A stretch of 45,692 nucleotides of DNA, taken from Gemmatimonadota bacterium (GTDB lineage: Bacteria; Gemmatimonadota; Gemmatimonadetes; Palauibacterales; Palauibacteraceae). Below, piece after piece: positions 3,542 to 25,834 of the stretch. The DNA lies in contig JBHIAV010000020.1 in NCBI GenBank assembly GCA_046758745.1, positions 1 to 45,692 of the forward strand. The letters run 5' to 3'. Position 1 is the stretch's first letter. Every line of letters starts with the position of its first letter. The translations under genes and the position numbers were made by a program. The notes beneath the pieces were generated by a model. It was not told the DNA's origin. It searched no databases and worked only from the letters and a program-made list of their open reading frames with translations.

Positions 3542-4428
3542 AGAGGTCCGCTCTCCTCCCACAGAACCACGAAGAGGCCGGCCGCGATCAGATCGGCGGT
3601 CGTCCCCGGGTTCCGCGCGTGGCCTTCTCGGCGGAGCTCGCGGTCGAGAGCGGCGACGAGCGCGCGCCCCTCTTCCGTGAGGATCCCGCCCCGTTCCACG
3701 GCAGCGCGAGCAGCCCGGCTCACCTCCTCCGCTTCCGCTCGCCCGAACTTTCGCGCGATGAGCGTGTCCGGGATGTCGGCGAGCACCCTCAGGTACGCCT
3801 GCACGACCGCGTCGGGCCACCCCAGTCCTGTGCACCGCGCCTCCCGGAGGGCCGGAGCGCAGCGCTCGAAGGTGATCTCGAAGTCACTGACGTATTCGGA
3901 CGCGATCGAGTCGCGGTCCGCCGCGAGCGCCATCGCCTCCCGAAGGGAGATCGTCGGAGTGCCGCGGATGTCCTGCTCCGCCACGGTGTCCAGCCCTCCA
4001 GGGGCGGCCGCTCGGATCGCGTGATACGCTTCCACCGCATCGTCCACATTGAGACGCCTCAACAGCTGCCGCAAGCTGTCGCGAAGCGGCTTCCGGCCGC
4101 CGGCCGCCGCCTTCGCCAGCGGCGCGAGCAGCAGGATGATGCCGAGGTTGGTATTCGCGGAGACCCACCTTCGGACCGCGTCGTGCGCCGCCCGAATGGT
4201 GGCGCCGACGCCTCTCTCGCCTGCCTCCGCCATGGCGGGTCCGATCGCTGCGGCGCTCGCCAGGTAGTGCTCGAAGCGGGCGTCCGGGAACCCCGCGGCC
4301 TGCGTCACGTTTCCGGGCTTCGGAGCGGAAGCTTCGAGCAGGCAGGCGATCTGCGCCACCACCCCTACTTCCGGCAGCCTCGCCGGGGGCCGCGCCGCCG
4401 GGGGCCGGGTCGCCGGGGACCGCGTCAT
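3538..4428 (-). CDS. CitG-like triphosphoribosyl-dephospho-CoA synthase family (Orf7)
   Basis: LEASAPKPGNV, NTNLGIILL, PDTLIARK, NPGTTADL; coupled to orf5 and queD. Confidence 0.85.
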   Translation of the reverse strand: MTRSPATRPPAARPPARLPEVGVVAQIACLLEASAPKPGNVTQAAGFPDARFEHYLASAAAIGPAMAEAGERGVGATIRAAHDAVRRWVSANTNLGIILLLAPLAKAAAGGRKPLRDSLRQLLRRLNVDDAVEAYHAIRAAAPGGLDTVAEQDIRGTPTISLREAMALAADRDSIASEYVSDFEITFERCAPALREARCTGLGWPDAVVQAYLRVLADIPDTLIARKFGRAEAEEVSRAARAAVERGGILTEEGRALVAALDRELRREGHARNPGTTADLIAAGLFVVLWEESGPL

Positions 4429-5339
4429 GCACCGAGCGGGAGCGTCCCCTCGGCCGGCCGACGCCCCTCGGTCCCAATCCGGTCGAGCACGCGCTCGGCG
4501 ACCGCTCCCGCGATATCCACCCCCGTCACGGCCTGGAGCCCTTTCCAGCCGGGGATTCCGTTCACCTCGAGCACGTATGCCTCGCCCGATGCTGCCGGGA
4601 GAAGATCAACCCCGGCGTAGTCCGCTCCCACCAGGTCGGCGGCGCGCACGGCCGCTTCCGTCCAAGAGTCGAGGAGATCGACCGGCTCGACGGCCCCGCC
4701 CCGGGCGACGTTGGTTCGCCAATCGGCCGCCCGCCGTGCGGCCGCCGCGACGACGCGCCCTCCGACGACGAAGGCCCTCAGGTCTCGCCCTCCGTGCGGG
4801 ATGGTGCGCTGCACGTAATACACCGCGCCCTCGATCTCGAGAGCCCGGAAGACCCGGTACGCCACGTCCTCGTGCTCGATTCGCACCATGCCGAGCCCGT
4901 TCGATCCGAAGAGCGGCTTCACGATGACGTCGCCGAAGGCGCGGAAGGCGGCCATCGCGTCCTCCAGCGTCTCCGCGACGACCGTGGGCGGCGTGGGGAT
5001 GCCGGCGTCCTCGAGCAGGGTCGACGTATAGAACTTGTCGACCGTCTTCTCGATCGCGCCGGCTGTGTTCACCACCGGCACCCCGAGCCGCGACAGGCGA
5101 TGGAGCGCGTCCACCCGAAAGATCGTCCGATCCAGCGAGGCGCGGGGGATGATGCGCACCAGCACGGCCATCAGGTCATCCAGTGCGGTTCCCCCGGCGC
5201 TGAGGCGCGGCGCGCTCCCCACACGGCCCACCAGAGCGTCGATCGGAAGCAGCTTCGACTCCACCCCCCGCTCGCGCAGAGCTCGGGCGAGCTCATCGGT
5301 GTGCCACCCGCCCGACGCGGCCAGGATACCGACCTTCAT
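4425..5339 (-). CDS. RimK-family glutamate ligase (Orf5/MyfB, methylofuran polyglutamylation)
   Basis: VDKFYTS, IVKPLFGSNG, DLRAFVVG, WRTNVARG, GVDLL, EVNGIPGW. ATG 5339 after GAGGAG; alternative GTG 5408 overlapping the mch stop. Confidence 0.85.
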   Translation of the reverse strand: MKVGILAASGGWHTDELARALRERGVESKLLPIDALVGRVGSAPRLSAGGTALDDLMAVLVRIIPRASLDRTIFRVDALHRLSRLGVPVVNTAGAIEKTVDKFYTSTLLEDAGIPTPPTVVAETLEDAMAAFRAFGDVIVKPLFGSNGLGMVRIEHEDVAYRVFRALEIEGAVYYVQRTIPHGGRDLRAFVVGGRVVAAAARRAADWRTNVARGGAVEPVDLLDSWTEAAVRAADLVGADYAGVDLLPAASGEAYVLEVNGIPGWKGLQAVTGVDIAGAVAERVLDRIGTEGRRPAEGTLPLGA

Positions 5340-5404
5340 TTGCCCTCGCTCCTCACCCGTCTCGCTCCTCCTCCGCCGGGGCGGACTGGGCCATCCGTGC
5401 TCGC

Positions 5405-6358
5405 TCACGTCAGGAGAGAGGCACGCAGCACGGCCGGGTTCACCTCTCCGGCGCGGAAGGTACGCCCGCTCGCCACGTTGGTCAGCGCCACCTCGGCGGG
5501 GCTGAACAGGTGCGGATCGATGCGGTAGAAGTCGCCATCGTAGCGCTTGAAGATCTCGTAGAAGGGAGTCCCGTAGTCGGAGGAGGCGGAGGACGGGATG
5601 CGGGAGACGATCTCCGCCAAGGCCTCGTCGCTCGTGCGGACCGTGAAGTGGGCGCGTCCCCCGTACAGGACGCAGTCGTTCGTTCGTCCGATCGCTCGCA
5701 GGTCATCCTTCGCGACGGGCGCGAGGGGCGCGGTGCCCAGTCCGCTGAGCACCGCTCCGATGTCGAACTCCAGCTCCAGCATCTTGTGCAGGGCCGTCTC
5801 GAGCACCCGTGCCGAGATCTGTACCCCGCCGGCCAGGCTCGCCGTGGGCGCGACGAGGAGGAAGAGCCCGTCGGGCGAAACGCCGGCACGCTCCGATACG
5901 TACGCCGCCACCTTTGCGTCCGGGAGCTGGCGCGTCTCCAGCACCAGCACCCCCCTCTTCGCCCTCTCCTCGTACCCCAGGGTCCCGAACAGCTGCTTCT
6001 CCACCCTGGCTGCGGCGCGGAGCGGGCCGGATCCCATGGCGAAGTAGCCCTCCGGATCGATCTTCCAGCCGGCGTACTGCGACGCCATGCAGCTCACCGC
6101 CGGATGGTCCGTGGAGACGATGACGCCCGGGAGCCAGTAGTCTCCGAAGTCGACGGTGGTGAACGCGATCTCGCCCAGGCCGCCCATGCACGCCTCGGCC
6201 AGCCTCCTGCCCGCGGCGAGGCCGCCCGGCGCTCGGACCCCGGCGTCGATGACCCGGGTGCCTCCCCCCAGCGACTCGACCTGAAGGCCAAGCGCCGTGG
6301 CATCCGCAATCATGCCATCCGCGATGCGGGCCGCCCGCTCGTTCAGCCCGAGGTCCAT
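5405..6358 (-). CDS. mch: methenyl-tetrahydromethanopterin cyclohydrolase
   Basis: ACMGGLG, CMASQYAGW, FAMGSGP, QISARVLETALHK, GRTNDCVLYGG, FYRIDPHLFSPA. Confidence 0.95.
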   Translation of the reverse strand: MDLGLNERAARIADGMIADATALGLQVESLGGGTRVIDAGVRAPGGLAAGRRLAEACMGGLGEIAFTTVDFGDYWLPGVIVSTDHPAVSCMASQYAGWKIDPEGYFAMGSGPLRAAARVEKQLFGTLGYEERAKRGVLVLETRQLPDAKVAAYVSERAGVSPDGLFLLVAPTASLAGGVQISARVLETALHKMLELEFDIGAVLSGLGTAPLAPVAKDDLRAIGRTNDCVLYGGRAHFTVRTSDEALAEIVSRIPSSASSDYGTPFYEIFKRYDGDFYRIDPHLFSPAEVALTNVASGRTFRAGEVNPAVLRASLLT

Positions 6359-7242
6359 TCCAGGATCTCCCGCAGATGGAGCAGGTGCTGCCCGAGCTTC
6401 CCACCGTAGTTCCCGGCGGTGATCGCCCTGACCCCCGGACGGCAGGCGGCCGGGATCCCCGCCCGCATCGCCGCCCTCACCTGCTCGAGGCCCATGCCGT
6501 CGATCACGATCTCGAGCACCGAGTTCACCCCTTCCGGGAGCGCGCTCTCCACGAGCGCCCGCAAGGTCGGGCAGTACGCGTCGTTGGTCGTGGCCTTGAG
6601 GGAGTAATGGCGCGATCCCACCTTGCTCCCGCTCCTGACGATCCCCCCTGGGAAGGGGAGGATGACTTCGGGCAGTCTCTCCATCGCCTCCACCGCGGCC
6701 TCGCCCGCCTCGAGGCCCGCGTCGGCGTCCTCGGCGAGGATCAAGAAGTTGCCCCCGCCCACCGCCTCGCGCACGCCGAAGGTCTCCTCGACCAGGAACT
6801 CCCCCTCCATCACGGGGATCCGCCAGTACCGGCGGCCGTCGATGACCTTGCTGATCTGGAACCGATCCCCGAAGTACCGGAGCTGGCCACCCACGTCGAT
6901 GCGTTCCTCCTCTCCGGGAAGCCCGTCATAGCAGGCGGTCGTCGGGCACGTGAGGACGCACTGGCCGACGCGCTCCACGGCGCGCTTCTCGACGCCTTCG
7001 CGGTCGAACGCGAAGAGAAGGACGCTGACGCCCGGACGGCCGTCGGGGGACTCGGCCGCAGAGAGCTGCCGTTCGATCCCCGCCTCGCACTTGCAGCCGA
7101 TCACCGACGTGGCGAAGCCGGTGAGCTTGAGCGCCGCCTCCCGCGCCCAGCGCGCGTTGCGGGCCGTGATCACGAGGCGGGCCGCGCGCATGGTGAATGC
7201 CTCCGCGAAGGTATCCTCGATCAGGACGCCGCGGATCCGCAT
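6343..7242 (-). CDS. fhcD: formylmethanofuran--H4MPT N-formyltransferase (Ftr/FhcD)
   Basis: IEDTFAEAF, GFATSVIGCKCEAGIE, RVGQCVLTCPTT, FPGGIVRSGSKVGS, TAGNYGGKLG. Confidence 0.95.
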   Translation of the reverse strand: MRIRGVLIEDTFAEAFTMRAARLVITARNARWAREAALKLTGFATSVIGCKCEAGIERQLSAAESPDGRPGVSVLLFAFDREGVEKRAVERVGQCVLTCPTTACYDGLPGEEERIDVGGQLRYFGDRFQISKVIDGRRYWRIPVMEGEFLVEETFGVREAVGGGNFLILAEDADAGLEAGEAAVEAMERLPEVILPFPGGIVRSGSKVGSRHYSLKATTNDAYCPTLRALVESALPEGVNSVLEIVIDGMGLEQVRAAMRAGIPAACRPGVRAITAGNYGGKLGQHLLHLREILEWTSG

Positions 7243-7392: not shown

Positions 7393-7442
7393 TCGGGGTA
7401 AGCTCAGCCGCGCGCCGCCGGGGTGAGCTCAACCTCGCGCCG
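7393..7442. repeat. 25-bp imperfect tandem duplication of the fwdC 3' end
   Basis: TCGGGGTAAGCTCAGCCGCGCGCCG (7393-7417) versus CCGGGGTGAGCTCAACCTCGCGCCG (7418-7442), 21/25 identical. Confidence 0.8.
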
Positions 7443-8259
7443 TGGTCTCCGCCGGATCAAGAAACAGCACCTCGCCGCGATTCAGCTCGACCACGTCGCC
7501 GCACCAACGCTGGTAGAGCCCGTTCACCTGTGCCTCGGCGATGGACAGACCCAACCGGCGAAGGTAGGGAAGATACAGGCGCAGGAATACCGGACGGTAG
7601 GTACAGGCGTGGCTGAAGGTGGGCAGTAGCTCCGCGGGATGCATTGACACGATCGAGCCCCGCTTCATCCCTGCGCCGGCGCGCCAGCCCAGATGCCCCA
7701 GCACGACAAGGGTGCCGGCGAGCATGTTCACCCCCGCGAAATCGCCGCAGTTCCCGCCAACCGCGATCAACCCGCGGCGCATGCCGCCCCCGACTTCGTT
7801 TCCCGCGTTCCCGAAGATGACGATCTCGCCGCCTCGGATGCCACTCGGACTACCACGAAGAGCACTTCCGATCATGTGGCCAGCGTTCCCTTTCACCACG
7901 ATCCGTCCACCTGACATCTCCGGGCCTACCCAGTCGCCGGCGTCGCCTTCGACGATGATCACTCCGCCCGTCATGCCTGCCCCCACATGCATGCCCACCG
8001 GGCCGTGCACCACGATGCGGCCTTCGGCCATGTTCGCACCGATCTGTTTCACGTTGGAAAGGTCGCCAGTGAGATGGATCTCGCCGTCTCCCGCTCCCGC
8101 GACGCGGAAGAACTCACCGAGTTCGGCGTGTTGGTTGCCGTGCACGACGGTGAGCTTCGCTACCTCGGCTGGGGAAAGACCGGCGAGCCTGCCCGGACTC
8201 AGGACATCCGCTTCGAGCGGCACCGCCGGTGGAGTATGCATTGTGAGCTCGAGGCTCAT
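7429..8259 (-). CDS. fwdC: formylmethanofuran dehydrogenase subunit C
   Basis: GxxMxxG beta-helix repeats (GAGMTGG, GGGMRRG, GVNMLAG, GAGMKRG), LLPTF. Confidence 0.92.
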   Translation of the reverse strand: MSLELTMHTPPAVPLEADVLSPGRLAGLSPAEVAKLTVVHGNQHAELGEFFRVAGAGDGEIHLTGDLSNVKQIGANMAEGRIVVHGPVGMHVGAGMTGGVIIVEGDAGDWVGPEMSGGRIVVKGNAGHMIGSALRGSPSGIRGGEIVIFGNAGNEVGGGMRRGLIAVGGNCGDFAGVNMLAGTLVVLGHLGWRAGAGMKRGSIVSMHPAELLPTFSHACTYRPVFLRLYLPYLRRLGLSIAEAQVNGLYQRWCGDVVELNRGEVLFLDPAETTARG

Positions 8260-8284
8260 GAACGCCTCTGCGCTCTGGGGCGCC

Positions 8285-9982
8285 TCAGACCCCGTGCTCG
8301 TCGGCTTCGGACGGTACGGCACCGGCCGCTTGATGCGCCGTCGGGATGATCTGGCCGTGCGGCACATAGCGGGCGTCCACCGGATAATTCGCGAAACGGA
8401 TCGTGTAGAACTCCTCGAAGAACGGGCCGATCACTCGCTCGATCTCGGGGTCATAATCGGGAGCAACTTGGAACACTCGTCCCTGGTGATCCGCGCGGAA
8501 CTCGTGGTCATCGATGATGAGCTCCCCGTCCTTGATCACATAACGGGGCGTGGAGAACATCTTTTCCTTGTCCTCGTCCTCCTCGTAGATCGTGATGTCG
8601 GCGTCCGCCCCGACCCCTAGGTGGCCCTTATCCGTGAGCCCCAGGAGGCGCGCCGGCCCCGCGCGGGTGATGATCGCGATCTCGTAGAGCGAGTACTCGC
8701 GCTCTTGGCAGTCGCGAAGCCCGCTGTTCTCGAGCGCTTTCTGGTTCACCGTGGCCATTTGCTGCTTGCGGTACTCGCGATCCATGAGCAGCCGTATGAG
8801 CGCCGGATACGTCATGAACGAACCGCCATTCGGATGATCGGTGGAGAACACCATGCGCCAGGGGTCCTCCGAGAGCAGGAACAGCTCGAGTCCGATGGCC
8901 CACTGCAGCGCGTTGGTGTACACGCGATCCTGGTAGGTGAACGGGACGATGCCGCAGCCGCTCTCGTTCTCGGTATCGGCGCTCACCCATTTGCCGCCAC
9001 CGAAACGGCGCAGCATGTATGCGAGCGGGGCATCCGCTGTCATGCTCATGGACCGCCCGAACATCACGGCGCCCACGTCCGCGCTGATGTTGGGGTGCGT
9101 GTTGACGAAATCGGCGATATCTCGCGCCCGTGACGTCGGGTTCTCCCCACTCTTCCCGGCGATGGAGCCGTAGCTGTGGAACTGGATGTGCGTGATGTGC
9201 GCCCGCCGCCCCTCCGCGATCCGCATCGTCTCGAGCGTCGTCTCGAAGTTCCCGGTGTGGCCCAGGTTGTTGCAGTGGATGTGCACCGGGTGCGGAAGCC
9301 CCAGGTCGTTCGCAGCTTCGATGAACGCGCCGATCACCTTGCGCGGAGTGAGGTCGAAGGATCCGATCTTCTCATCGAGCCGGGTAATGTTTGCGTTCCT
9401 CTGCCCCTTCCAGAGTTCATCGGCCCCGGGATTCACCAGCTTGGGGGCGTATGCCTTGGTCGCACTCAGCCACCAGGCCAGCGCCTGCTGGAACTCCTCG
9501 CCCCGCCCCTCCTCCAGCATTCGGTAGAGCAGCAGGTTGTTGCCGACCAGCACGAAGAATCCCTTGTCGATGACCGGCGTGTCGTGCAGTTCCTCCAGCG
9601 TGTGGCGCGCGCCGAGCGGCGTCACGGCGGCTTCCATAGCCGTGGTGTAGCCGAGCGCCGCGTACCGATAGCCGGTAGCGAACGTGGACGGAACGGAGCC
9701 GCCCGTGCCCGAGCGGGTGAGTCGGGTGCGCTGATGGACGTCGTGCCGGTGGTCCTCCGGCTGTACCTTCCGAGCGAGGTTGACCTTGGGGCCGGCGATG
9801 TGACAGTGGATGTCGATGCCTCCCGGCATCACCACCATTCCGCTCGCCTCGATCTTCTTCGCCTCCGGGGGGACGCTGGGCACAATCCTGCCGTCCTGGA
9901 CGCACACGTCCCGCACCTCGGCGTCGACGCCGTTCGCCGGGTCGTACACCCTGCCGTCGACGATGCGCAGCGACGAACCCAC
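8285..9982 (-). CDS. fwdA: formylmethanofuran dehydrogenase subunit A (amidohydrolase)
   Basis: DIHCHIAG, KLVNPG, HPVHIHCNNLG, HITHIQFHSYG, STDHPNGG metal ligands. GTG after GAGGAGG. Confidence 0.95.
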   Translation of the reverse strand: MGSSLRIVDGRVYDPANGVDAEVRDVCVQDGRIVPSVPPEAKKIEASGMVVMPGGIDIHCHIAGPKVNLARKVQPEDHRHDVHQRTRLTRSGTGGSVPSTFATGYRYAALGYTTAMEAAVTPLGARHTLEELHDTPVIDKGFFVLVGNNLLLYRMLEEGRGEEFQQALAWWLSATKAYAPKLVNPGADELWKGQRNANITRLDEKIGSFDLTPRKVIGAFIEAANDLGLPHPVHIHCNNLGHTGNFETTLETMRIAEGRRAHITHIQFHSYGSIAGKSGENPTSRARDIADFVNTHPNISADVGAVMFGRSMSMTADAPLAYMLRRFGGGKWVSADTENESGCGIVPFTYQDRVYTNALQWAIGLELFLLSEDPWRMVFSTDHPNGGSFMTYPALIRLLMDREYRKQQMATVNQKALENSGLRDCQEREYSLYEIAIITRAGPARLLGLTDKGHLGVGADADITIYEEDEDKEKMFSTPRYVIKDGELIIDDHEFRADHQGRVFQVAPDYDPEIERVIGPFFEEFYTIRFANYPVDARYVPHGQIIPTAHQAAGAVPSEADEHGV

Positions 9983-10007
9983 GCAGCCTCCTCTCGGCGT
10001 GCGGGCC

Positions 10008-11357
10008 CTACGCGACCGAGGCGACGAGCGGTGTGCCCACAGGGAGGCGGTTACCTCCGAGCAGCTCGCGCACGCGATGGCGGATGGCGGTCAGGATCTG
10101 CTCGTCGCTCGGGTAAGGCGAATCGAAGGCCGGGCGCAGCGTGATCGGGACGTCGTCCATGCGGTACACCGTGCCCGCGACGTTGATGCCGTACGTGGCC
10201 GTCGTGAATGCCACCCGCGCCAGCTGGCTCGTAAGCGTGAGCTTGGGATCCAGGCAGATGACCGGGATACGCCGGAGGTGCTCGATGGCCGCCTTTGGAA
10301 AGTTGGAGGCGGGATCGCTCGCGACGATCAGAGCCGCATCGGCTTCGCGACGGGCGAGCAGGTCCACCGTGGTGAACTCGCCGGGATTGAAGCGAGGGTA
10401 CCCTCGGCTGAAGTTGACGCCGAACGGGAACCCCGTCTGCCACGACAGAACGTTGTCCGCGCCCGTCACATTGCCATGACCGCGGACCGGCTTCGCCACG
10501 AAGCGCGTGAACTCGTTAAGATCAGTGGCGAGTGCCAGCAGCGCTCCGGAATTGAAGTGCCGGCCGCGGGTCATCGTGAGTCCCATCCCGAACAGGAAGA
10601 CGCCGTAGCAGCAGCTCTTCATCCGCGAGACGAGGTCCTCTAGGACGGCGAGGGAGACGCCGGTGCGCTGCTCGATGGAGGGATCGACCTCGCGTCCTTT
10701 GACCAGGGCCCTCAACGCCCACAGGACTTCGAAGTCACTGCGCGGCTTCACCTGGATGAAGATGTCCGCTACCCGCGCACTGGGAGTTCGCCGCACGTCC
10801 ACCAGGACGACGGTGCGGTCTTTTCGACCGTTGGGGACGTACATGCCCTTCGGGGTCACCGCGTACCTCGTGAAGAGCCGCGGGTGCGACTCCGCCGGGT
10901 TACCGCCCCAGAACACGATGAGGTCCGCCCGGTTCTTTATCTCGCCGAGCGAGGCGGTGCTTTCGCCCACGCCCTGGAACGCGATTCCCGATGGGCCGTG
11001 GCACACCGAGGTCGTGGTGTCCACCGTGCCGCCGATCATGTCCGCGAGCGACACCGCCACGCGCTGAGCCTCACAGGTCGTGTCGGACAGCCCGTAGATC
11101 ACGGGGAAACGCGCCCGGGCGAGAATCTGTGCGGCCTCTTCGACGCCTTCATCGGTGCTCGCCTCGCGACCCTCGATCAGGGCGAACGGACGCTCCTCGA
11201 GGCCGTGCTGCTTGAACCACGCCCTGCCCAGGATACAGGCGTTCGCCGCCTTCGTGATGCGCTTCTGCTCCAGATCCACGGTGAGGTCCATGTCGTCGCA
11301 AACGCAGCCGCAGAATGTGCAGGTAGCCCCCTCTACAACCCTGATGCCGTCGCTCAT
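10008..11357 (-). CDS. fwdB: formylmethanofuran dehydrogenase subunit B (Mo/W-pterin, [4Fe-4S])
   Basis: CTFCGCVCDD plus a distal ANAC Cys, TSVCHGPS, IKNRADLIVFWG, RGHGNVTG, YRMDDVP. ATG after GAGGAG. Confidence 0.93.
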   Translation of the reverse strand: MSDGIRVVEGATCTFCGCVCDDMDLTVDLEQKRITKAANACILGRAWFKQHGLEERPFALIEGREASTDEGVEEAAQILARARFPVIYGLSDTTCEAQRVAVSLADMIGGTVDTTTSVCHGPSGIAFQGVGESTASLGEIKNRADLIVFWGGNPAESHPRLFTRYAVTPKGMYVPNGRKDRTVVLVDVRRTPSARVADIFIQVKPRSDFEVLWALRALVKGREVDPSIEQRTGVSLAVLEDLVSRMKSCCYGVFLFGMGLTMTRGRHFNSGALLALATDLNEFTRFVAKPVRGHGNVTGADNVLSWQTGFPFGVNFSRGYPRFNPGEFTTVDLLARREADAALIVASDPASNFPKAAIEHLRRIPVICLDPKLTLTSQLARVAFTTATYGINVAGTVYRMDDVPITLRPAFDSPYPSDEQILTAIRHRVRELLGGNRLPVGTPLVASVA

Positions 11358-11361
11358 CGGA

Positions 11362-11730
11362 CTAATCTCCTCGATTCTCCGCGCTCTCCCGGACCGGCTC
11401 GATTTCAACGTCCAGGTTCTTGGAGATCGGCATGCCGCTGCCGGCCGTATCGCTCGCCATCAGCTCGCTCGACAGGGGGCCGTAGGCCATGAACAGTATC
11501 CCCGGTGGCAGGTCCTTCGTCTCGCGGCCCTTGCACCGCACGACGACCTCGCCCACCGACGTGCGCAGCCGCACCTTGCTGTCATCCTTGAGTCCAAGGC
11601 GCGCCATGTCCTCCACGTTCATCTCCACGGTCGAGGAGATGTCAATGTACGTCGGCTCCGTCTTACCTGCGCACAGAGAGGTCCCCTGCTTGCTCGAGCG
11701 CCCGCCGATCAGCGTCATGATCTCAGCCAT
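11362..11730 (-). CDS. fwdD: formylmethanofuran dehydrogenase subunit D (molybdopterin dinucleotide-binding domain)
   Basis: LIGGRSSKQG, EMNVEDMARLG, GILFMAYGP, DTAGSGMP; directly upstream of fwdB. Alternative start 11766. Confidence 0.88.
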   Translation of the reverse strand: MAEIMTLIGGRSSKQGTSLCAGKTEPTYIDISSTVEMNVEDMARLGLKDDSKVRLRTSVGEVVVRCKGRETKDLPPGILFMAYGPLSSELMASDTAGSGMPISKNLDVEIEPVRESAENRGD

Positions 11731-11812
11731 GGGAAACCTGGCGGACCTCAAGAGAGGATCGCTCATTCCCGGCGATCCAGCCTGGATTCCCGGGTTTGCC
11801 GCTGCCGTCTCC

Positions 11813-11832: not shown

Positions 11833-13221
11833 TCATTGAGAGCGACCGTCCAGCAGTCTCAGCATCTCCTCGACGCGGGTGAACTTCTCACGCGGCTTGC
11901 CCTTGGCTGCTCCGCGTCTGATCTCCGCCTGGTCGATTACAAGCCAGTCGCTGTAGCTGACCACCCGAGGCCCATCCCCTGCGCGCAGGACGTTCAGGCC
12001 GTCCGCCCCGGGCTTCGCGCCGCTGTCCAGAGCCGGCAGATCGGCGAGCAGGGATTTCACGGTCGCGACGCTGTCCGCGCGGTTCGTACCGATGAGCCCC
12101 GTCGGACCACGCTTGATCCATCCCGTGGCGTACAGCCCCGGAATCACGGCGCCGCTCTCGTCGACGATCCGTCCGTCACGGGTGGGGAAGATGCCCCGGC
12201 GCACATCGAACGGAACACCCGGGAGCGGGATGCCCTGATACCCGATGCTGCGGAATAGTAGCCCACAGGCCATTCCCACGCGTTCCCCTGTCCCTACCGC
12301 CTTCTGCTGGAAGGGCTGGCCCTCGAGTCGGTTCCGTTCGAAGATGACCTCCTCCAGCCGCCCTTCGCCCTTGAGCTGCACAGGACTCAGCAGGAAGCGC
12401 AGGATGATCCGCCGACGGCTTCCGCGGCCGGGCCGGGAGGTGAAGCCGTGGAGGATCTCCACGTTCTTCCGGGCGACGGACCCGCGCTTGTCGGCGATTT
12501 CGGAGAGACTCTCGGGATTGAGCTCGAGCTCCGCCGGATCCACCGCCGGATCGCAGTCCGCCAGCTCGCCCAGCTCCCGGAGCTCCTTGCTGGTGAACTT
12601 CGCCTGCGCGGGACCGCGGCGCCCGACAACATGGATCTCCCGGATCCGGCTCGTGGCGAGGCAGTCGATGGCATGTTCGCAGATATCGGTCTGCTTCAGC
12701 TCGTCCACTGTCTTGGCGAGAATCCGGCACACGTCGACGGCGACGTTCCCCTGGCCGATGATGACCGCCACCTCATGGCTCAGATCGAACCGCCGATCGT
12801 GGTAATCCGGATGCCCGTTGTACCAGCCGACGAATTCGGTCGCGGTGTGGCTTCCCGGCAGATCCTCCCCGGGAATCCCCAACCGGCGGTCGCTCTCCGC
12901 CCCGCAGGCGAACACCACCGCATGATACGCCTCCCGCAGCTCCTGGACGGCGACATCGCGGCCCACCGTGACGTTGCCCAGAAACCTGAACTCGGGCTCG
13001 CGCGCGATCCTCTCGTAGATCCGGATCGGCCCCTTGAGCTTGGGATGGTCGGGGGCGACCCCGTAGCGAACGAGGCCGAAGGGGGCCGGAAGCCGTTCAA
13101 GCATGTCGACGCGGACCACGTGCTCGGACTTGATGAGGGCTTCTGCGGCGTAAAACCCACTGGGGCCGGCGCCGACGATCGCCACCTTGAGGGGATTCTG
13201 CTCCGAGCCGAGGACGCTCAT
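11833..13221 (-). CDS. ferredoxin--NADP+ reductase (FprA/adrenodoxin reductase type)
   Basis: VAIVGAGPSGFYAA, PFGLVRYGVAPDH, FVGWYNGHP, IGQGNVAVDV, GRRGPAQAKFT, GWIKRGPTGLIGTN, KPREK. ATG after GGAG. Confidence 0.92.
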   Translation of the reverse strand: MSVLGSEQNPLKVAIVGAGPSGFYAAEALIKSEHVVRVDMLERLPAPFGLVRYGVAPDHPKLKGPIRIYERIAREPEFRFLGNVTVGRDVAVQELREAYHAVVFACGAESDRRLGIPGEDLPGSHTATEFVGWYNGHPDYHDRRFDLSHEVAVIIGQGNVAVDVCRILAKTVDELKQTDICEHAIDCLATSRIREIHVVGRRGPAQAKFTSKELRELGELADCDPAVDPAELELNPESLSEIADKRGSVARKNVEILHGFTSRPGRGSRRRIILRFLLSPVQLKGEGRLEEVIFERNRLEGQPFQQKAVGTGERVGMACGLLFRSIGYQGIPLPGVPFDVRRGIFPTRDGRIVDESGAVIPGLYATGWIKRGPTGLIGTNRADSVATVKSLLADLPALDSGAKPGADGLNVLRAGDGPRVVSYSDWLVIDQAEIRRGAAKGKPREKFTRVEEMLRLLDGRSQ

Positions 13222-13689
13222 TGGTGCTCCGTTCGGGTCAGGCGCAGGCATCATCACGGGAACACGACGATTGCCAGGATGTGTCGTCCAACCGGCCTAG
13301 CAACGGCCACGCGGGAGAGCGTCACGAGAGAACTGACCGGTTGCGCGGCCAAACTGTGTCGTCGTCGAGGGGTCCCGATGCCTTCACGTTACATTTCTCC
13401 CTGTGGGCCGCGACCGCTCAGAATCGGGCCTCCGTCGCGGCGCCGCAAATCGGACAGCGGGGACCCGTCATGCAAGCGAGATCGCGGTTGGTAGCGACCG
13501 ACCTGACGGGCAGGACGGATCTCGTCCTGGGCGCCACAGGACCGCCGGACGCGGCTTCGGGCAGGGGCCTGAGAATCGGCGCTCCCCGACGAGAACGTGA
13601 ACCGCGGCGCGGCACATTCGAGGGGATACCGCGAAAGGAAGAGCCAGCGTGCCCGGGCTGCCGGGGCGCCTTCATCGCCGCGCGGCGGT

Positions 13690-15142: not shown

Positions 15143-15997
15143 TCAGAGCGACCGCGCCAGCTCGAAGATCGTCTCGGCGTCCAGGACCAGATCGTTCCGC
15201 TCGAAGAGCCGCGCGATGCACGCCTTGTGGAGCTTCAGCTTGAAGCCGCCGACGCCGAACGCGCCGAACGTAGTCGCCCCATCGCGCGACGCCCCGTCGT
15301 CAGTCGCCTCCACTCCCTCGATCCCGAGGGGAGGCACCGCGTTCAGGTCGCCGAGCACCGACGGTCCCTCGCTCGCCCACGCGGAGCGCTTGAGAAGGAC
15401 AACGCCCGGCGGGCCGCAGGAGAGGACGATATCGGCTCCCTCGAGATCCTCGGCCGACTCCAGAGGGTAGTCCACGGCCCGGGGCGTCACCTCGACCCCG
15501 AAGCGCCCCGAGACGACGCGGCGCGCGCGCTCGGCCGTCGCGGTGCTCCGCGAGGTGATGGCGACCTCGGCTCCCGCCGTGGCGAAGAGCGCCGCGGCCC
15601 GCTTGCCGACCGGTCCGGTGCCGCCGAGGAGGAGGACCCGCTTCCCTTCCACGCCGCCGGCCGCCCGCTCCAGCTTTACCACGGCGGCCACCGCCGTCGT
15701 GTTCGAGCCGTTCGAGTCGAGCAGGATGGCTACCCGGAACGGGCCGAAGAACGCCTCCCGGGCCTTCTCGAGCAGGGTCTCCCCGGCCTCGAGGTCGGCG
15801 CCGCCGATGAAGATGGCGGTATTCCGGAGCTCCTTCGGGCCGCGCGTGAAGATGGCCCCATGCACGAGGCCGCGGACGTCGCCGGAATCCACCCCACCGT
15901 AGGCGAGCACCTCATCCGCGCCGCCGTCGAACGCGACGATGCTGTCGAAGGCACTCGGGTGTCGGTCGCTGTCGAGCTGGAGGAGGAGCTTCTTCAT
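15143..15997 (-). CDS. mtdA: NAD(P)-dependent methylene-H4MPT dehydrogenase (MtdA/MtdC type)
   Basis: KKLLLQLD, AFDGGAD, IFTRGPK, FFGPFRV, LDSNGSNTTA, GTGPVG, DLNAVPPLGI, KLKLHKACIARLF. Confidence 0.9.
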   Translation of the reverse strand: MKKLLLQLDSDRHPSAFDSIVAFDGGADEVLAYGGVDSGDVRGLVHGAIFTRGPKELRNTAIFIGGADLEAGETLLEKAREAFFGPFRVAILLDSNGSNTTAVAAVVKLERAAGGVEGKRVLLLGGTGPVGKRAAALFATAGAEVAITSRSTATAERARRVVSGRFGVEVTPRAVDYPLESAEDLEGADIVLSCGPPGVVLLKRSAWASEGPSVLGDLNAVPPLGIEGVEATDDGASRDGATTFGAFGVGGFKLKLHKACIARLFERNDLVLDAETIFELARSL

Positions 15998-16051: not shown

Positions 16052-16573
16052 CTAGACGCGCACGGTCTCCTCTGCGCCCGCGGCGAACGGGTGACGGGCC
16101 GCCTCCTTCTTCGACAGCACCGTGTCGATCGTGGGAAGGCTCTTGATCGCCCGCTCGATCGACTCCTTCGTCGCCTGGTAGTTGAAGTCGAAGATCTTCT
16201 TGTCGTCCTCGGCCTCCCAGTGGATGAACACGCCGACCAGGATGCACAGGTCATCCACCTGATCCTTGGGGATGATCCCCTCCTCGACGGAATCCACTAC
16301 GGCGCGCGCCACCGCCGCCTGGGCGGGCCCGAACATCTGTACCGCCTGCTTGGCCCCTTTGATCGTCACCTTGTTGAAGAGCAGGGTATCGGGCTTGGCG
16401 GGGAGGTTCGGCTCGACGACCGCCAGGAGAGCGTTGTGGCCGGAGCGCTGGGAGCAGAGGGTGTTGGTGAACGCTTGGCCGGCCGGTCCGTTCTTGGAAC
16501 CGATGACGAGATCGACGTGAGCGACCTCGTTACCGTCGCCGACAAGCGACTCGCCGATCATGAGTGATCGCAT
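16052..16573 (-). CDS. fae: formaldehyde-activating enzyme
   Basis: [45 protein letters not shown] after GGAGG. Confidence 0.95.
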
Positions 16574-19272: not shown

Positions 19273-20661
19273 ATGCCGACGACGAAAGAGGTCTTGGGAG
19301 GGACAACGGCCTCCCCGGTGCCGGAAGCCAGCGAGAGCCCGGGCTTCGAAGCAGGGGTGGCGCCCTACCAGAAGAACTACTGGGCTCCGGAGTACCGGCC
19401 AAGAGACACGGACCTGCTCTGCGCGTTCCGCATCACCCCGAAGCCGGGGGTCGACATCATCGAGGCGGCCGCCGCAGTGGCCGCGGAATCTTCCACCGGG
19501 ACGTGGACCGAGGTGTGGTCGAGCGCCCTCACGGACCTCGATCGCTACCGCGCGCTCGTCTACCGGATCGACGACGACATCGCGTACATCGCCTACCCGT
19601 TGGATCTCTTCGAGGAGGGTTCCATCGTCAACATCATGAGCTCGATCGTCGGCAACGTCTTCGGCTTCAAGGCCGTCACCGCCCTGCGTCTGGAGGATAT
19701 GCGGATCCCGGTCGCGCTGGTGAAGACCTTCCCGGGACCGCCCACCGGGATCGAGCTGGAGCGGCAGCGGCTCAAGAAGTTCGGCCGCCCGCTACTCGGG
19801 GGCACGATCAAGCCGAAGCTCGGCCTGAGCCCCGCGGGATACGCCCGGGTCGTCTACGACTGCCTCAAAGGCGGGCTGGACACCACCAAGGACGACGAGA
19901 ACATGAACTCCCAGCCGTTCAGCCGCTGGCGGGACCGCTTCCTGTTCGTGATGGAGGCGGTGAACAAGGCGGAGGCCGAGACCGGCGAGACGAAGGGTCA
20001 CTGGCTGAACGTCACCGCCCCCACCACGGAGGAGGCGCTCGAGCGGGCGGATTACGCGGCCGAACTCGGCTCGCGCTACGTGATGATCGATTACCTGACC
20101 GCCGGCTTCGCTGCCCACCAGAGCGTGCGCAATCACATCGAGAAGAAGGGGCTGATGCTCCACGTGCATCGGGCGATGCACGCCGTCATCGACCGGCAGA
20201 AGAACCACGGCATCGCCTTCCGGGTGCTCGCGAAGTGGCTCCGGCTGGCCGGCGGCGATCACCTGCACACGGGGACGGTGGTCGGCAAGCTGGAAGGCGA
20301 TAGGGCCGTGACCATCGCCATCGCGGACATGCTGAGGAAGGATTGGGTCCCCGCCGACCCGGCGACGGGCGCCTACTTCGAGCAGGAGTGGGCAGGGCTC
20401 AAAACCGTCTTTCCGTGCGCCTCCGGTGGCATCCATGTGCATCACATCCCGGCCCTGTACGAGATCTACGGGAACGATGCCTTCTGGCTCTTCGGCGGCG
20501 GGACGCACGGACACCCCGGCGGCAGCCTGGCGGGAGCGCGGGCCAACAGGGTCGCCACAGAGGCGATCGCCCAGGGAATTCCCCTGGAGAGGGCGGCCCG
20601 CGACTGCCCGGAGCTCCGCGACGCGATGGAGCTCTGGAAGGACATCCGCTTCGAAGACTGA
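19273..20661 (+). CDS. rbcL: RuBisCO large subunit, Form I-like without small subunit (probable Form I-alpha)
   Basis: [63 protein letters not shown] all intact; the next gene is prk, with no rbcS. Confidence 0.96.
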
Positions 20662-20672
20662 GGAGATCGACC

Positions 20673-21656
20673 ATGCCGTTCCGAGACCAGAATCCGATCC
20701 TGCTCGGCATCGTCGGCGACTCCGGTTCGGGCAAATCGACGCTCTCCGCAGGGATCGAGATGATCCTCGGCAAGGAAAGAGTGACCGATATCTGCCTGGA
20801 CGACTACCACCGCTACGATCGTGCCGGGCGCAAGGCGCATGGAATCACCGCGCTGAATCCCGAGTGCAACCACCTGGAGCTGATGCGGCAGCACCTCCTC
20901 CTCCTCCGCGCAGGAGAGACGATCTTCAAGCCGGTGTATGATCACTCCGATGGGACCTTCGGTCCCCCGGAGTTCGTGACGCCGCGACAGCTCGTGGTCG
21001 TGCATGGGCTTTTGGGGCTGTACACCCAGCCCCTCAAGTCCGCCTTTCACGTCTCGGTCTTTCTCGACCCCGATCCCGACCTCCGGGTGCAGTGGAAGAT
21101 CAGCCGGGATACGGCGAAGCGCGGCTACACTCCGGAGCAGGTGCGGCAACAGCTCGAGCATCGGCGTCACGATTCCGAGACGTTCATCCTGCCGCAGCGG
21201 GGGCGGGCGGACCTCGTCGTGCGCTTCTACCCGCAGCCCGGCTACTGGCAGACGCGCGACAACACCAGGCTGAACGTCCGCATCCTGCAGCGCCACGACG
21301 TGGGGGGACCCGACCTCGAGTCGCTGCTGGTCGAGGCGGCTCGCATCGCCTGCCACGGGAAAAGGGGACGCCCGTGTCTGTACCTCGAGGAATATTCGAC
21401 GGGTGGAGTCGAGGAGGCCCTCTACATAGACGGTTCGATTCCAGACGAGCTGGCCGCGGAAGTGGAAGACACCCTGTGGGATCAGATGCCGCGGGTCCGA
21501 CACCTGCGCCCGGAGGAGATCGGCGTGTTCGATGAGGGCGGGGTGATCCGCCGGTCCAACAGCCTCGCGCTCACCCAGCTGCTCGTCACGTACTACCTCG
21601 TGCGAGCCGCCGAAGTGGCGCGGGAGGAGCTGGCGGCCTCGGCGGCCGCCTCGTGA
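20673..21656 (+). CDS. prk: phosphoribulokinase (cyanobacterial/plant/archaeal-like class)
   Basis: [13 protein letters not shown]-loop, [43 protein letters not shown] after GAGGAG. Confidence 0.9.
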
Positions 21657-22742: not shown

Positions 22743-22745
22743 CCC

Positions 22746-22985
22746 GCTGTCGGAGCATGGCGGGTGCCTGTCGGGGATACGGGCCGTCTCCTGTCGGGGT
22801 GATGGCAGCCGCCTTTCGGGGACACGGGCCGTCGCCTTTACGCCACAGGGCTCCCTGGTTCGTATCGGGGGGACTCCCCATCTTGGAGAACCTCCATGTT
22901 TCGGGCAGGAGCCCCGGCCCTGTTCGGGCAGGGATCGCGGTCGTCGGGCACCCCTTTCTAGGTCGGGCAGGAACGCCCGTCGGGA
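22746..22985. repeat. degenerate repeat tract (TCGGG cores at ~17-23 bp spacing, ~45-bp duplicated unit)
   Basis: GCCTGTCGGGGATACGGGCCGTCTCCT (22766-22792) versus GCCTTTCGGGGACACGGGCCGTCGCCT (22811-22837); TCGGGCAGG at 22901, 22924, 22963. Confidence 0.6.
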
Positions 22986-22994
22986 GCGGGTCGC

Positions 22995-23294
22995 GTGGGA
23001 TACACCCGCAGGGACATCCAGGACTCGGTGAACCGGGCCGGCGACGCCCACATGCAGGCGCTCATCGATCATCACGAGTCGGCCTATCCGGAGAGCCCTC
23101 CCACGCCGGGAAACATCTGCCGCGCCGAAGCCGAGCGCCTGAATGAGCTGGGCTTCGGGAACGCCGGCGACGACCTCAGACTGATCGAGACGAGGGTCGA
23201 ACGGGCCGGGAACGAAGTTCGGATCACGCACGTTTTCGAGTACGTACCACTCGGGGTGCGCCTATTGACCGAGCCGTTCACGGGCTACGCCTGA
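22995..23294 (+). CDS. hypothetical protein (99 aa)
   Basis: GTG after GGGAG; globular, balanced composition unlike the Arg/Pro-rich shadow ORFs. Confidence 0.65.
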
Positions 23295-25773: not shown

Positions 25774-25805
25774 CACAGCGCAACCCCAAAGCCCCTCGAA
25801 AGAGG

Positions 25806-25834
25806 CCGGGCACCGGGCTGAGCCCGGTGCCCGG
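25806..25834. repeat. perfect 14-bp inverted repeat downstream of xoxF
   Basis: CCGGGCACCGGGCT-G-AGCCCGGTGCCCGG. Confidence 0.8.

Follow-up and report, generated by a model that had tools for sequence, protein, structure and literature searches.

The window, by which we mean the whole 45,692-nucleotide stretch of DNA analysed here, carries on its minus strand a block of four genes encoding FwdD, FwdB, FwdA and FwdC (positions 7429-11766), set among genes of H4MPT-linked C1 metabolism (Table 1). The original prediction ended this block at 11730, but the start codon of FwdD lies 36 nt beyond that point, at 11766. The open reading frame (ORF) of FwdB covers 10008-11408, although its likely start is the ATG at 11357, 5 nt past the FwdD stop codon, and FwdD is translationally coupled to FwdB; the FwdC ORF spans 7429-8367, with a likely start ATG at 8259. 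The formyltransferase gene, ftr, had been described as lying outside the block. It is indeed not interleaved with the fwd genes, but it follows fwdC by 186 nt on the same strand, overlaps mch and is probably part of the fwd operon.

Table 1. Genes of the fwd cluster and associated C1 genes in the window
Product	Position	Strand	Profile match	Remarks
FprA/adrenodoxin-reductase-type NADPH:ferredoxin oxidoreductase, 474 aa	11833..13257	minus		66 nt upstream of fwdD
FwdD, 134 aa	11362..11766	minus	PF01568 46.7 bits	separate 'domain IV' cap, pterin site
FwdB, 449 aa	10008..11357	minus	TIGR03129 502.9 bits (cut-off 327.8)	Mo/W-bis-pterin and [4Fe-4S] subunit
FwdA, 565 aa	8285..9982	minus	TIGR03121 680.5 bits	binuclear-metal amidohydrolase predicted to cleave formyl-MFR
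FwdC/FhcC, 276 aa	7429..8259	minus	TIGR03122 266.6 bits	beta-helix scaffold
Ftr/FhcD, formylmethanofuran:H4MPT formyltransferase	6343..7242	minus	NF002554 441.9 bits; TIGR03119 430.8 bits	
Mch, methenyl-H4MPT cyclohydrolase	5405..6358	minus	TIGR03120 398.3 bits	16 nt overlap with ftr
MptN-like RimK-family glutamate ligase (H4MPT side chain)	4425..5408	minus	NF040720 253.1 bits (below cut-off 350); TIGR00768 189.5 bits	4 nt overlap with mch
MtdB-like methylene-H4MPT dehydrogenase	15143..15997	minus	PF09176 Mpt_N 106.6 bits	
Fae, formaldehyde-activating enzyme	16052..16573	minus	TIGR03126 256.2 bits	

The window also encodes a XoxF-type PQQ dehydrogenase, RuBisCO and PRK, and other parts of the genome supply two canonical bis-pterin formate dehydrogenases, NDH-1 and an aa3 oxidase. 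The stretch was found in no RNA run. The proposed host is a soil-type Gemmatimonadota bacterium, an aerobic methanol oxidiser that fixes carbon via RuBisCO. In the family to which the window belongs, 30 genomes were sampled and none has a FwdB homologue, so either the fwd island was acquired or the contig is mis-binned, although the tetranucleotide profile is typical of the bin.

FwdB matches archaeal subunits over its full length (PDB 8rja_B, E 3.3e-116; 5t5i_B, E 8.5e-110), whereas the match to Methylorubrum FhcB (6s6y_B) is weak (E 1.6e-16) and confined to C-terminal residues 254-449. With residues numbered from the ORF that runs to 11408, and alignment positions counted by hand, C30, C33 and C37 (spaced C-x2-C-x3-C) together with C58 match the N-terminal cysteine quartet of M. 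wolfei FwdB, and each is specified by a Cys codon. Cys136 (codon TGC) and His137, in the motif TSVCHGPS, align with Cys118 and His119 of the M. wolfei enzyme (5t5i_B), while Arg309 in RGHGNV aligns with Arg288, and H311 is also present. Alignment and codons thus bear out the original prediction that subunit B retains CxxCxxxC, the VCHGPS cysteine (encoded by TGC and not selenocysteine) and RGHxNV. The structure model of FwdB was poor (pLDDT 68) and uninformative. FwdD, likewise predicted to be present as a separate subunit, scores 71.9 bits against NF042908 (E 5e-20), below the curated cut-off of 175, and matches FwdD chains in the PDB at around 1e-12 (7bkb_J, 7.8e-13; 5t5i_D, 9.5e-13), in addition to the Pfam hit in Table 1. 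In the account given by Hemmann et al. 2019 (PMC6926001), FhcB has lost Cys118 (now Ser62), His119, Arg288 and the Fe-S domain, and the complex has no FwdD cap, so that formate is released. Every residue described there as lost is kept in the window, and the B/D pair is not a degenerate FhcB of the Methylorubrum kind.

The significance of these motifs is illustrated by their distribution among relatives. In a set of 80 FwdB homologues from 80 loci, spanning at least four phyla including Gemmatimonadota, Proteobacteria and Chloroflexi, the four Fe-S cysteines are kept in 79-80 sequences, and C136, H137, R309 and H311 each in all 80. In every one of the 76 testable loci the gene for FwdD immediately precedes that for FwdB. 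No other subunit is as well conserved among these relatives as FwdB, whose mean identity to the window is 79.1%, compared with 73.5% for A, 66.5% for D, 65.4% for C and 62.0% for Ftr. Degenerate, Fhc-like paralogues are represented by 19 B sequences from the same loci (L001-L060), and occur in 76 of 400 sampled Gemmatimonadota genomes. The Fhc-like clusters, which often share a locus with a Fwd-type cluster, encode homologues of B, A, Ftr and C; FwdD was absent, as judged where the upstream DNA was short enough to tell. Their B subunits are 29-44% identical to the window FwdB and are the least conserved component (33.0% versus 47.2% for A). They have lost C136 and H137 in all cases (0/19 each) and retain R309 in only 5/19, although the four Fe-S cysteines are still kept in 18-19/19. 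Since the FwdB motifs are invariant in 79-80 of the 80 homologues and, at the metal-ligand site, absent from the 19 degenerate paralogues, sequence comparison argues that they are not due to chance and that both the catalytic residues and the Fe-S cysteines are strongly conserved. In the tree, the window and its 79 homologues are sister (support 1.0) to a clade containing all 11 intact representatives, one of them methanogen-type, and stand apart from the degenerate clades. The family is large, comprising at least 5810 clusters at 90% identity with E <= 1e-100; species-representative genomes contain at least 575 confirmed stretches. Pathway reconstructions, at least in the treatments of PMC11264602 and PMC13300288, lump these enzymes with Fhc.

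The label 'archaeal-style', applied originally to the whole complex, fits B and D and, weakly, A, but not the FwdC tail or the gene order, which are Fhc-like. FwdA matches archaeal chains (8rja_A, 2.3e-143; 5t5i_A, 7.1e-141) and FhcA (6s6y_A, 8.3e-112), and its HxH (H59, H61) and other conserved metal-site motifs align, by motif alignment only, with archaeal FwdA (5t5i_A). For archaeal FwdC chains, alignment to the window FwdC stops near ORF residue 258, whereas M. extorquens FhcC (6s6y_C, residues 12-261) aligns with residues 52-301, tail included; the tail itself (approximately residues 243-301 of the ORF) aligns solely with this protein. The FwdC model (pLDDT 94.2) displays helices at 226-235 and 242-246, and in Foldseek it lies nearer, by a small margin, to 6s6y_C (TMq 0.88, rmsd 1.9) than to 5t5i_C (TMq 0.87, rmsd 3.1). 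This FhcC-like helix-loop-helix may dock the formyltransferase. The best match of Ftr is FhcD (6s6y_D, 2.6e-93), followed by archaeal Ftr (1ftr_A, 2e-92). Gene order could be read in 60 relatives, and 51 of them place ftr between A and C, exactly the fhcBADC arrangement, which makes the architecture Fhc-like; the placement of ftr in the window, outside A-C, is a minority rearrangement. Neither the polyferredoxin FwdF nor the ferredoxin FwdG was found among the ORFs of the window or when the 80 loci were scanned using the proteins of the window.

The gene upstream of fwdD encodes a protein of the two-domain FAD/NADP fold whose residues 21-468 give a full-length match to FprA (PDB 1lqt_A, E 1.4e-118) in which the N-terminal IVGAGPSG (GxGxxG) motif is aligned; it also matches adrenodoxin reductase (1cjc_A, E 3e-113). 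Of 56 testable loci, 45 have an fprA orthologue (59-76% identity) adjoining the fwd genes, or 46 if the frameshifted pieces in L005 are counted, and in the 45 loci it lies either upstream of fwdD (22) or downstream of fwdC (23). Next to fprA in 35 of the 45 is a small gene for a 7Fe ferredoxin, a full-length homologue of 7Fe ferredoxin I (1frk_A, 8.2e-27). In the window itself fprA has neither a neighbouring ferredoxin gene nor a remnant of one; contig C56 of the same genome encodes a 7Fe-type ferredoxin with 44% identity. Among 400 sampled Gemmatimonadota genomes, FprA with at least 69% identity occurs in seven, five of them encoding it beside a Fwd-type B, the others being G302 and G065, while 134 carry, only or also, a generic FprA at 45-55% identity. 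These data support the presence of a dedicated electron-exit module, consisting of FprA either alone or together with a 7Fe ferredoxin, that is linked to the fwd cluster in place of FwdF/G. The Fwd of Ethanoperedens, in which FwdF is reported to be replaced by an F420 reductase (PMC11493965), provides a precedent for such an exchange.

Sequence establishes what all the subunits are, that the residues for catalysis and Fe-S binding are intact and conserved, and how the genes are linked; from this we infer cofactor loading, activity, direction, electron acceptor and Ftr docking as follows. The operon fprA-fwdD-fwdB-fwdA-fwdC-ftr-mch would encode a bacterial formyltransferase/formylmethanofuran dehydrogenase complex in which Ftr transfers the formyl group of formyl-H4MPT to methanofuran or methylofuran, FwdA hydrolyses the formyl-MFR, and the formate is passed to the Mo- or W-bis-pterin site of FwdB/FwdD, where it is oxidised to CO2. 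The two electrons would exit through the FwdB [4Fe-4S] cluster, most likely to NADP+ through the adjacent FprA-type flavoprotein. The link would be the cluster-encoded 7Fe ferredoxin in most relatives and, in this genome, a ferredoxin encoded elsewhere or direct docking. The net outcome would be CO2 and NADPH, without free formate, which is in keeping with a methanol oxidiser that lives aerobically and uses RuBisCO. Direct oxidation of formyl-MFR to CO2, as originally predicted, appears to be the best reading, given that the B/D residues are intact and strongly conserved and that an electron-exit module is linked to the genes; we assign a probability of about 0.7 to a complex of Fhc architecture whose dehydrogenase is live and converts formyl-MFR to CO2 by oxidation. 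Redox activity of the FwdB/D dehydrogenase is itself probable, if anything slightly more so, while the odds that the electrons leave to NADP+ via FprA are roughly even.

The identity of the electron acceptor is where the most credible alternative lies. The complex could be redox-active without FprA being its partner, the electrons passing to the ferredoxin pool or another acceptor and the fprA-fdx pair serving a nearby function, such as ferredoxin-dependent steps in H4MPT or methanofuran biosynthesis. This is consistent with the MptN-like, CitG-like and ATP-grasp cofactor-biosynthesis genes that flank the cluster, with the window fprA having no ferredoxin beside it, with the 10 of 56 testable loci that have no nearby FprA, and with three Fwd-type genomes of the phylum sample that have generic FprA only; in addition, G302 retains the high-identity FprA within a purely Fhc-like cluster devoid of FwdD or an intact B. 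However, Fhc-only genomes have the same cofactor need, and the high-identity FprA is found in just 1 of 76 of them, and the fprA linkage persists through two gene arrangements and across phyla. We therefore regard the exclusion of FprA from the electron path as rather unlikely.

Considerably less probable is that the complex functions like the Methylorubrum Fhc, FwdB and FwdD acting as scaffolds while formyl-MFR is converted to free formate and the two formate dehydrogenases complete the oxidation. The FhcC-like tail of FwdC accords with such a function, as does an ftr gene that, much as in fhcBADC, is within or next to the cluster, and the two separate formate dehydrogenases make a formate-releasing route viable as well. 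Cofactor supply counts on the same side, as the genome encodes MoaA (two copies), MoaD and MoaE, while searches of this 87.4%-complete MAG did not recover MoeA, MobA, FdhD or ModA. MoeA, MobA and FdhD are, however, present in five of five related genomes and contiguous in four, and both encoded formate dehydrogenases need the same genes. Furthermore, a scaffold role fits poorly with catalytic and Fe-S residues invariant in 79-80 of 80 sequences, with an ever-present FwdD and with B as the most conserved subunit, when genuinely degenerate paralogues sharing these loci no longer have the metal ligands. Least probable of all is a reductive, methanogen-like direction in which CO2 is fixed onto methanofuran. 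In its favour, chemistry at the FwdBD site is inherently reversible, and enzymes that fix CO2 are said to have the same active site as those that form it (PMC11493965). Against this, the context is oxidative (Fae, MtdB-like and XoxF-type dehydrogenases, aa3 oxidase), carbon fixation is already covered by RuBisCO and PRK, and the cluster has no low-potential donor module (FwdF/G, Hdr). The potential of the NADP couple is about -320 mV. NADPH would thus be some 200 mV too positive for a formyl-MFR couple placed at -530 mV (PMC11493965), and the reversibility suggested in the original prediction is physiologically unlikely if NADP(H) is the partner.

The redox-active complex favoured here shares features with several known systems. 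The full-length FwdB match, the four Fe-S cysteines, the Cys-His...Arg site, the separate FwdD, the FwdA metal-site motifs and the FwdC beta-helix are common to archaeal FwdABCD(FG) of Methanothermobacter wolfei (5T5I). In the window, by contrast, the cluster has no FwdF or FwdG, the tail of FwdC cannot be aligned with archaeal FwdC, ftr probably belongs to the operon and the neighbour is an FprA-type flavoprotein. As its host is an aerobic bacterium, the window enzyme, unlike methanogen Fwd, presumably runs oxidatively. The Fwd of Candidatus Ethanoperedens thermophilum (8RJA) provides the best PDB match for both FwdB and FwdA; it is reported to form CO2, the reductase module that replaces the polyferredoxin making oxidation strongly exergonic (PMC11493965). 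That enzyme uses the F420 reductase FwdI and retains FwdG, whereas the window encodes an adrenodoxin-reductase-type FAD enzyme with NADP+ as the would-be acceptor. With Methylorubrum extorquens FhcABCD (6S6Y) the window system shares its place in the pathway (after Fae, Mtd and Mch), the tail of FwdC, FhcD as the best match of Ftr and, in most relatives, the B-A-ftr-C order, but it differs in keeping the Fe-S domain, Cys, His and Arg of FwdB and in possessing FwdD. The FprA homologue resembles Mycobacterium tuberculosis FprA over its full length, and the relatives' ferredoxin resembles Azotobacter 7Fe ferredoxin I. In known FprA systems electrons are described as flowing from NADPH via ferredoxin to P450s (PMC6208970); the flow proposed here would be reversed, from a -530 mV donor to NADP+.

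New here are the FprA linkage in two arrangements, the FhcC-like FwdC tail and the position of ftr between A and C in most relatives. In textbook bacterial methylotrophy the H4MPT pathway ends in Fhc, and at the formate that it releases assimilation and oxidation part ways. Within an Fhc architecture, a live dehydrogenase would remove this branch point and would deliver NADPH straight from a -530 mV donor, which would be relevant to methylotrophs that use the CBB cycle and to energy-starved oxidisers of atmospheric trace gases. Somewhat short of even odds is the broader view of a widespread Ftr-FwdABCD, 7Fe ferredoxin and FprA supercomplex converting formyl-H4MPT to CO2 and NADPH without free formate; if true, it would be the first NADP-linked formylmethanofuran dehydrogenase and a third type of electron coupling in these enzymes, after ferredoxin/polyferredoxin and F420. 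The Fwd-type system occurs in soil Gemmatimonadota, a USC-gamma-labelled MAG, Betaproteobacteria and Chloroflexi, and, as its cluster frequently has a degenerate Fhc paralogue for a neighbour, a single cell could switch between a formate and a CO2/NADPH exit from the H4MPT pathway. An enzyme from an aerobic host that is predicted to interconvert CO2 and formyl groups would also be of biocatalytic interest. Hemmann et al. proposed an evolutionary path from archaeal Fwd to the Fhc of methylotrophs (PMC6926001). The window system looks like a living intermediate between archaeal Fwd and the crippled Fhc of model methylotrophs, and would, if the reading holds, represent an experimentally reachable survivor of that transition, in which the formyltransferase had been recruited and the dehydrogenase not yet lost.

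The genes from the fprA-like gene to the MptN-like ligase are closely packed in the window and all co-directional on the minus strand. The ATG of a 449-residue FwdB begins 5 nt past the FwdD stop codon, and 449 residues is the length of FwdB in the public gene calls of relatives. Automatic annotation already calls this protein 'formylmethanofuran dehydrogenase subunit B'. A search for RNA runs containing the segment 6343-13257 listed none.

Genes of the fwd string and the evidence for their assignment
Feature	Coordinates	Strand	Assignment
fprA-like	11833-13257	-	FprA/adrenodoxin-reductase homologue
fwdD	11362-11766	-	PF01568 match; FwdD model below cut-off
fwdB	10008-11357/11408	-	curated model far above cut-off
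fwdA	8285-9982	-	curated model far above cut-off
fwdC	7429-8259/8367	-	curated model far above cut-off
ftr	6343-7242	-	curated model far above cut-off
mch	5405-6358	-	curated model far above cut-off
MptN-like ligase	4425-5408	-	

Near this string the window carries fae, an MtdB-like gene, the RuBisCO large subunit, phosphoribulokinase, a XoxF-type PQQ dehydrogenase and a XoxJ-like protein. The window is one contig of a MAG of 3.08 Mb in 130 contigs (68.4% G+C, 87.4% complete, 0.08% contaminated), and other parts of this genome carry genes for an aa3 oxidase, NDH-1 and two formate dehydrogenases, one of the NAD type and one of the FdnGHI type. On the strength of the C1 and CBB-cycle genes in the window, together with these respiratory and formate-oxidizing enzymes, the host reads as an aerobic methanol oxidizer using the CBB cycle. 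In the region 19273-21656 the RuBisCO large-subunit gene scores 657.6 bits against NF003252 and 447.8 bits, below cut-off, against the type III model; phosphoribulokinase comes almost directly after it, leaving a gap too small for a small-subunit gene. In the region 21653-23800 the transketolase ORF (497 residues) covers only positions 3-343 of a 654-position model and is followed by several overlapping ORFs in other frames. A frameshift or disruption of the gene, or an assembly error, may account for this. Two PQQ-dependent dehydrogenases of the methanol/ethanol family lie in the regions 23818-28801 and 32479-40100: a XoxF-like enzyme, accompanied by the XoxJ-like binding protein, and a 765-residue ORF with a long N-terminal extension. 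Two TonB-dependent receptors, of which one is PqqU-like, and a sulfocyanin-like cupredoxin are encoded there as well.

FwdB from the window matches archaeal chains end to end (Ethanoperedens, 8rja_B, 3.3e-116; M. wolfei, 5t5i_B, 8.5e-110); FhcB of the Methylorubrum formyltransferase/hydrolase complex (6s6y_B) aligns to residues 254-449 only (1.6e-16). Counted along the alignment with 5t5i_B, Cys136 corresponds to Cys118, His137 to His119 and Arg309 to Arg288, and Cys30, Cys33, Cys37 and Cys58 align to the four N-terminal cysteines of that chain. The codon of Cys136 is TGC. The Fe-S cysteines, this cysteine, the arginine of the RGH motif and a separate fwdD are thus confirmed as the original prediction described them. 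Its account of Methylorubrum, in which FhcB has lost the pterin and Fe-S sites and FwdD is lacking, likewise agrees with the available text of Hemmann et al. 2019 (PMC6926001), where Ser62 replaces Cys118, His119, Arg288 and the Fe-S domain are gone, and FwdD has no counterpart. The predicted FwdB model is weak (pLDDT 68.2), with low confidence right at the cofactor loops; Foldseek with this low-confidence model placed archaeal FwdB above FhcB, at a TM of ~0.5 and an rmsd of ~11 Å.

The active-site residues are retained far beyond the window. A scan of species-representative genomes gave at least 600 stretches, of which at least 575 were confirmed as relatives, and the best 80 (72-88% identity) were taken as the locus set, with one Fwd-type B per locus and with HSPs shorter than 250 query residues or on the opposite strand excluded. 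These loci carry the labels Gemmatimonadales, Gamma-, Beta- and Alphaproteobacteria, Chloroflexi and Candidatus Oxydemutatoraceae MAGs, with one MAG labelled USC-gamma and one Candidatus Methylophosphatis. Cys58, Cys136, His137, Arg309 and His311 are kept in 80/80 homologues, and Cys30, Cys33 and Cys37 in 79, the exception being a sequence truncated by a contig end. The fwdD gene precedes the intact fwdB in all 76 loci with at least 450 nt of upstream sequence. Within this best-80 set B has the highest mean identity to the window (79.1%, n=80), followed by A (73.5%, 72), D (66.5%, 75), C (65.4%, 62) and Ftr (62.0%, 63). In four Chloroflexi-labelled loci (L044, L050, L055 and L064) a conserved ORF of 70-80 residues lies between fwdD and fwdB; it starts MSW..GDWA.EM, contains no cysteines and has an acidic C-terminus.

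The same 80 loci contain 19 additional, Fhc-like B genes (29-39% identity), which display a different pattern. Position 136 is Ala, Thr, Pro or Met and never Cys (0/19), His137 is likewise absent (0/19) and Arg309 occurs in 5/19, with the Fe-S cysteines kept in 18-19 of the 19. FwdD is missing wherever the upstream spacing is readable, and B is the least conserved subunit (mean identity to the window 33.0%, versus 47.2% for A and 35.9% for C). Such Fhc-like B proteins, with the four [4Fe-4S] cysteines and without the Mo/W ligands, occur in many Gemmatimonadota (loci L001-L060, for example L002, L013 and L020; genomes G161, G174 and others), and they differ in this respect from M. extorquens FhcB, in which the entire Fe-S domain is absent. 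A selenocysteine encoded by an in-frame TGA was considered for seven Fhc-like B genes of a phylum-wide sample and rejected, as the active-site position is Ala, Thr or Ile in 7/7; in 3/7 a stop is visible in the alignment, and it lies at the 3' end of the gene.

A search of 1.84 billion protein-cluster representatives with FwdB returned 2828 matches with E <= 1e-3. Among the top 150 of these, 92 cover all eight sites by pairwise local alignment, the other 58 being left out; 90 of the 92 keep the four cysteines and only 11 keep C-H-R-H. In a midpoint-rooted tree of 190 sequences (FastTree, LG+gamma), from which one Fwd-type and one Fhc-like sequence with an uncovered site were omitted, the window and 79 locus homologues form one group. 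Its sister clade (support 1.0) comprises 18 representatives, namely all 11 intact ones and seven that deviate, and the Fhc-like paralogues are placed amid the degenerate representatives, in two separate clades. An intact representative, P0027, matches Methanospirillum FwdB at 586 bits, so methanogen-type enzymes are part of the sister clade. Eight representatives of 570-640 residues (P0001, P0002, P0007, P0010, P0024, P0033, P0077 and P0138) are probably FwdD-FwdB fusions; this was confirmed for P0007, in which FwdD chains match the N-terminus and FwdB chains the C-terminus.

Archaeal FwdC chains reach only about residue 258 of the window ORF, and FhcC (6s6y_C) aligns to residues 52-301, tail included. 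The tail of FhcC, a helix-loop-helix in place of a beta-hairpin, carries FhcD, according to the accessible part of Hemmann et al. (PMC6926001). In the confident FwdC model (pLDDT 94.2, built on 41 aligned sequences) residues 226-235 and 242-246 are helical, and Foldseek gave the lowest rmsd for 6s6y_C (1.9 Å, TMq 0.88), by a small margin over 5t5i_C (3.1 Å, TMq 0.87). In 51 loci the genes run D-B-A-ftr-C, and nine share the window's order, D-B-A-C-ftr; in two others B is followed by no ftr, and the remaining loci are cut. The order in M. extorquens is given as fhcBADC in the text available (PMC6926001). The architecture of the window-type complex is Fhc-like. The observation behind the original prediction stands and its interpretation is supported in part: the intact, conserved residues of B and the presence of D favour a redox-competent enzyme oxidizing formyl-methanofuran to CO2, but the archaeal style fits B and D only, and A weakly.

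A full-length FprA/adrenodoxin-reductase homologue (1lqt_A, 1.4e-118; 1cjc_A, 3e-113) is encoded 66 nt upstream of fwdD. In the 56 of the 80 loci that could be judged for fprA, through coverage of both flanks or a visible gene (24 were not judgeable), an orthologue of 59-76% identity adjoins the fwd cluster in 45, upstream of fwdD in 22 and downstream of fwdC in 23. Among the 11 initially scored without the gene, L005 carries it in three frameshifted pieces, raising the count to 46/56. Directly upstream of fprA, 35 of the 45 loci (23/23 of the downstream and 12/22 of the upstream arrangement) have a gene of ~101 codons for a full-length homologue of the Azotobacter 7Fe ferredoxin I (1frk_A, 8.2e-27). 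A search upstream of the window's fprA for this ferredoxin gene or a decayed remnant gave nothing significant; the sole comparable ferredoxin of the genome, on contig C56, is 44% identical. FprA, with the ferredoxin where present, suggests NADP+ as the electron sink. In L010 an internally deleted ferredoxin remnant lies upstream of fprA at about 4071-4197. The fprA pieces of L005 span 7813-9185 of the corresponding stretch of genome G130 (L122, G130:C2) and could be long-read assembly errors; L010 and L122 are two apparent cases of decay of the electron module.

Across 400 evenly drawn Gemmatimonadota genomes plus that of the window, counts that take in the unpublished genome G062, a B homologue occurs in 84 genomes other than the window's own, eight with the Fwd type (82-86% identity) and 76 with Fhc-like B only (30-44%). 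FprA homologues (E <= 1e-60) occur in 134 genomes of the sample besides the window's own, mostly at 45-55% identity, and reach at least 69% in seven, five of which have the gene adjoining a Fwd-type B (G190, G215, G142, G344 and G130). The sixth, G065, has it on a 3.7 kb contig with fdx-fprA only, and in the seventh, G302, it lies within an Fhc-like cluster without FwdD or an intact B. The Fwd-type genomes G320, G391 and G151 have generic FprA only. Because of the relatedness among these genomes, the counts cannot be treated as independent. In the G302 locus (L120, G302:C42:18000-32000) a 70%-identity fprA is flanked by ftr and an FhcC-like gene; B is degenerate there, and FwdD and ferredoxin are both lacking. 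This locus may have arisen by deletion from an L002-type arrangement, or it may hint that FprA also acts outside the intact dehydrogenase.

The best-supported reading of these genes is a formyltransferase/dehydrogenase complex. Ftr would transfer the formyl group onto methanofuran, FwdA would hydrolyse formyl-methanofuran, the tunnelled formate would be oxidized to CO2 by FwdBD, and the electrons would exit via the FwdB cluster; we infer the insertion of the cofactor, the identity of its metal (Mo or W), the activity of the complex, its electron acceptor and the docking of Ftr. The potential of NADP is about -320 mV. Set against this, the formyl-methanofuran couple at -530 mV (PMC11493965 and PMC11656701, in the parts available) would make oxidation strongly exergonic, and a reverse reaction driven by NADPH is therefore implausible, contrary to the reversibility that the original prediction had allowed. 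The Ethanoperedens enzyme provides a precedent, in the accessible text of PMC11493965, for the electron module rather than the active site setting the direction.

With respect to cofactor supply, the MAG encodes MoaA (two copies), MoaD and MoaE; MoeA, MobA, FdhD and ModA were not found in its 87.4%-complete sequence, and tblastn with the relatives' MobA/MoeA-region ORFs gave no match in this genome. FdhD, MobA and MoeA are all found in five of five related genomes with the same cluster (G001-G005), the MobA-like and FdhD matches being below strict cut-offs, and ModA in two. Four of the five have fdhD, mobA and moeA no more than about 3 kb apart, so one assembly gap could remove all three. The two canonical Mo/W formate dehydrogenases of the window's genome (C61:5402-7828 and C28:32726-36100) require the same three genes.

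The provenance of the cluster admits two explanations. A B homologue was found in 0/30 sampled genomes of the window's own family, and all eight other Fwd-type genomes of the phylum sample belong to another family of the same class. The contig has a tetranucleotide profile typical for its bin (r = 0.996; it ranks 32 among the 58 contigs of 15 kb or more). A 16S gene search of the genome gave none. The absence of B from the family suggests either horizontal acquisition of the whole C1 island or mis-binning of the contig from a compositionally similar relative; mis-binning would weaken the whole-genome arguments only.

In the portion of Chistoserdova 2016 (PMC5020050) available, fwdD is recorded in Archaea, Synergistetes, Firmicutes and NC10 and absent from Planctomycetes and Proteobacteria. 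A count of 149 bacterial FwdB matches is given by Wells et al. 2023 (PMC10100899), who infer transfer from Archaea and propose no function in the sections accessible, and the accessible text of a 2024 formylmethanofuran dehydrogenase review (PMC11656701) gives Fhc as the sole bacterial relative. MAG surveys, as far as their available text goes, put fwd and fhc together. Neither an intact bacterial Fwd in methylotrophs nor an FprA/ferredoxin link to it is described in the literature searched; Adam et al. 2019 (Nat Microbiol), Chistoserdova 2013 and supplements, which lay outside that search, may bear on the point. The complex encoded in the window is, as read from its genes, an Fwd/Fhc hybrid with a probable NADP-linked electron exit, and this hybrid is widespread among uncultured bacteria.
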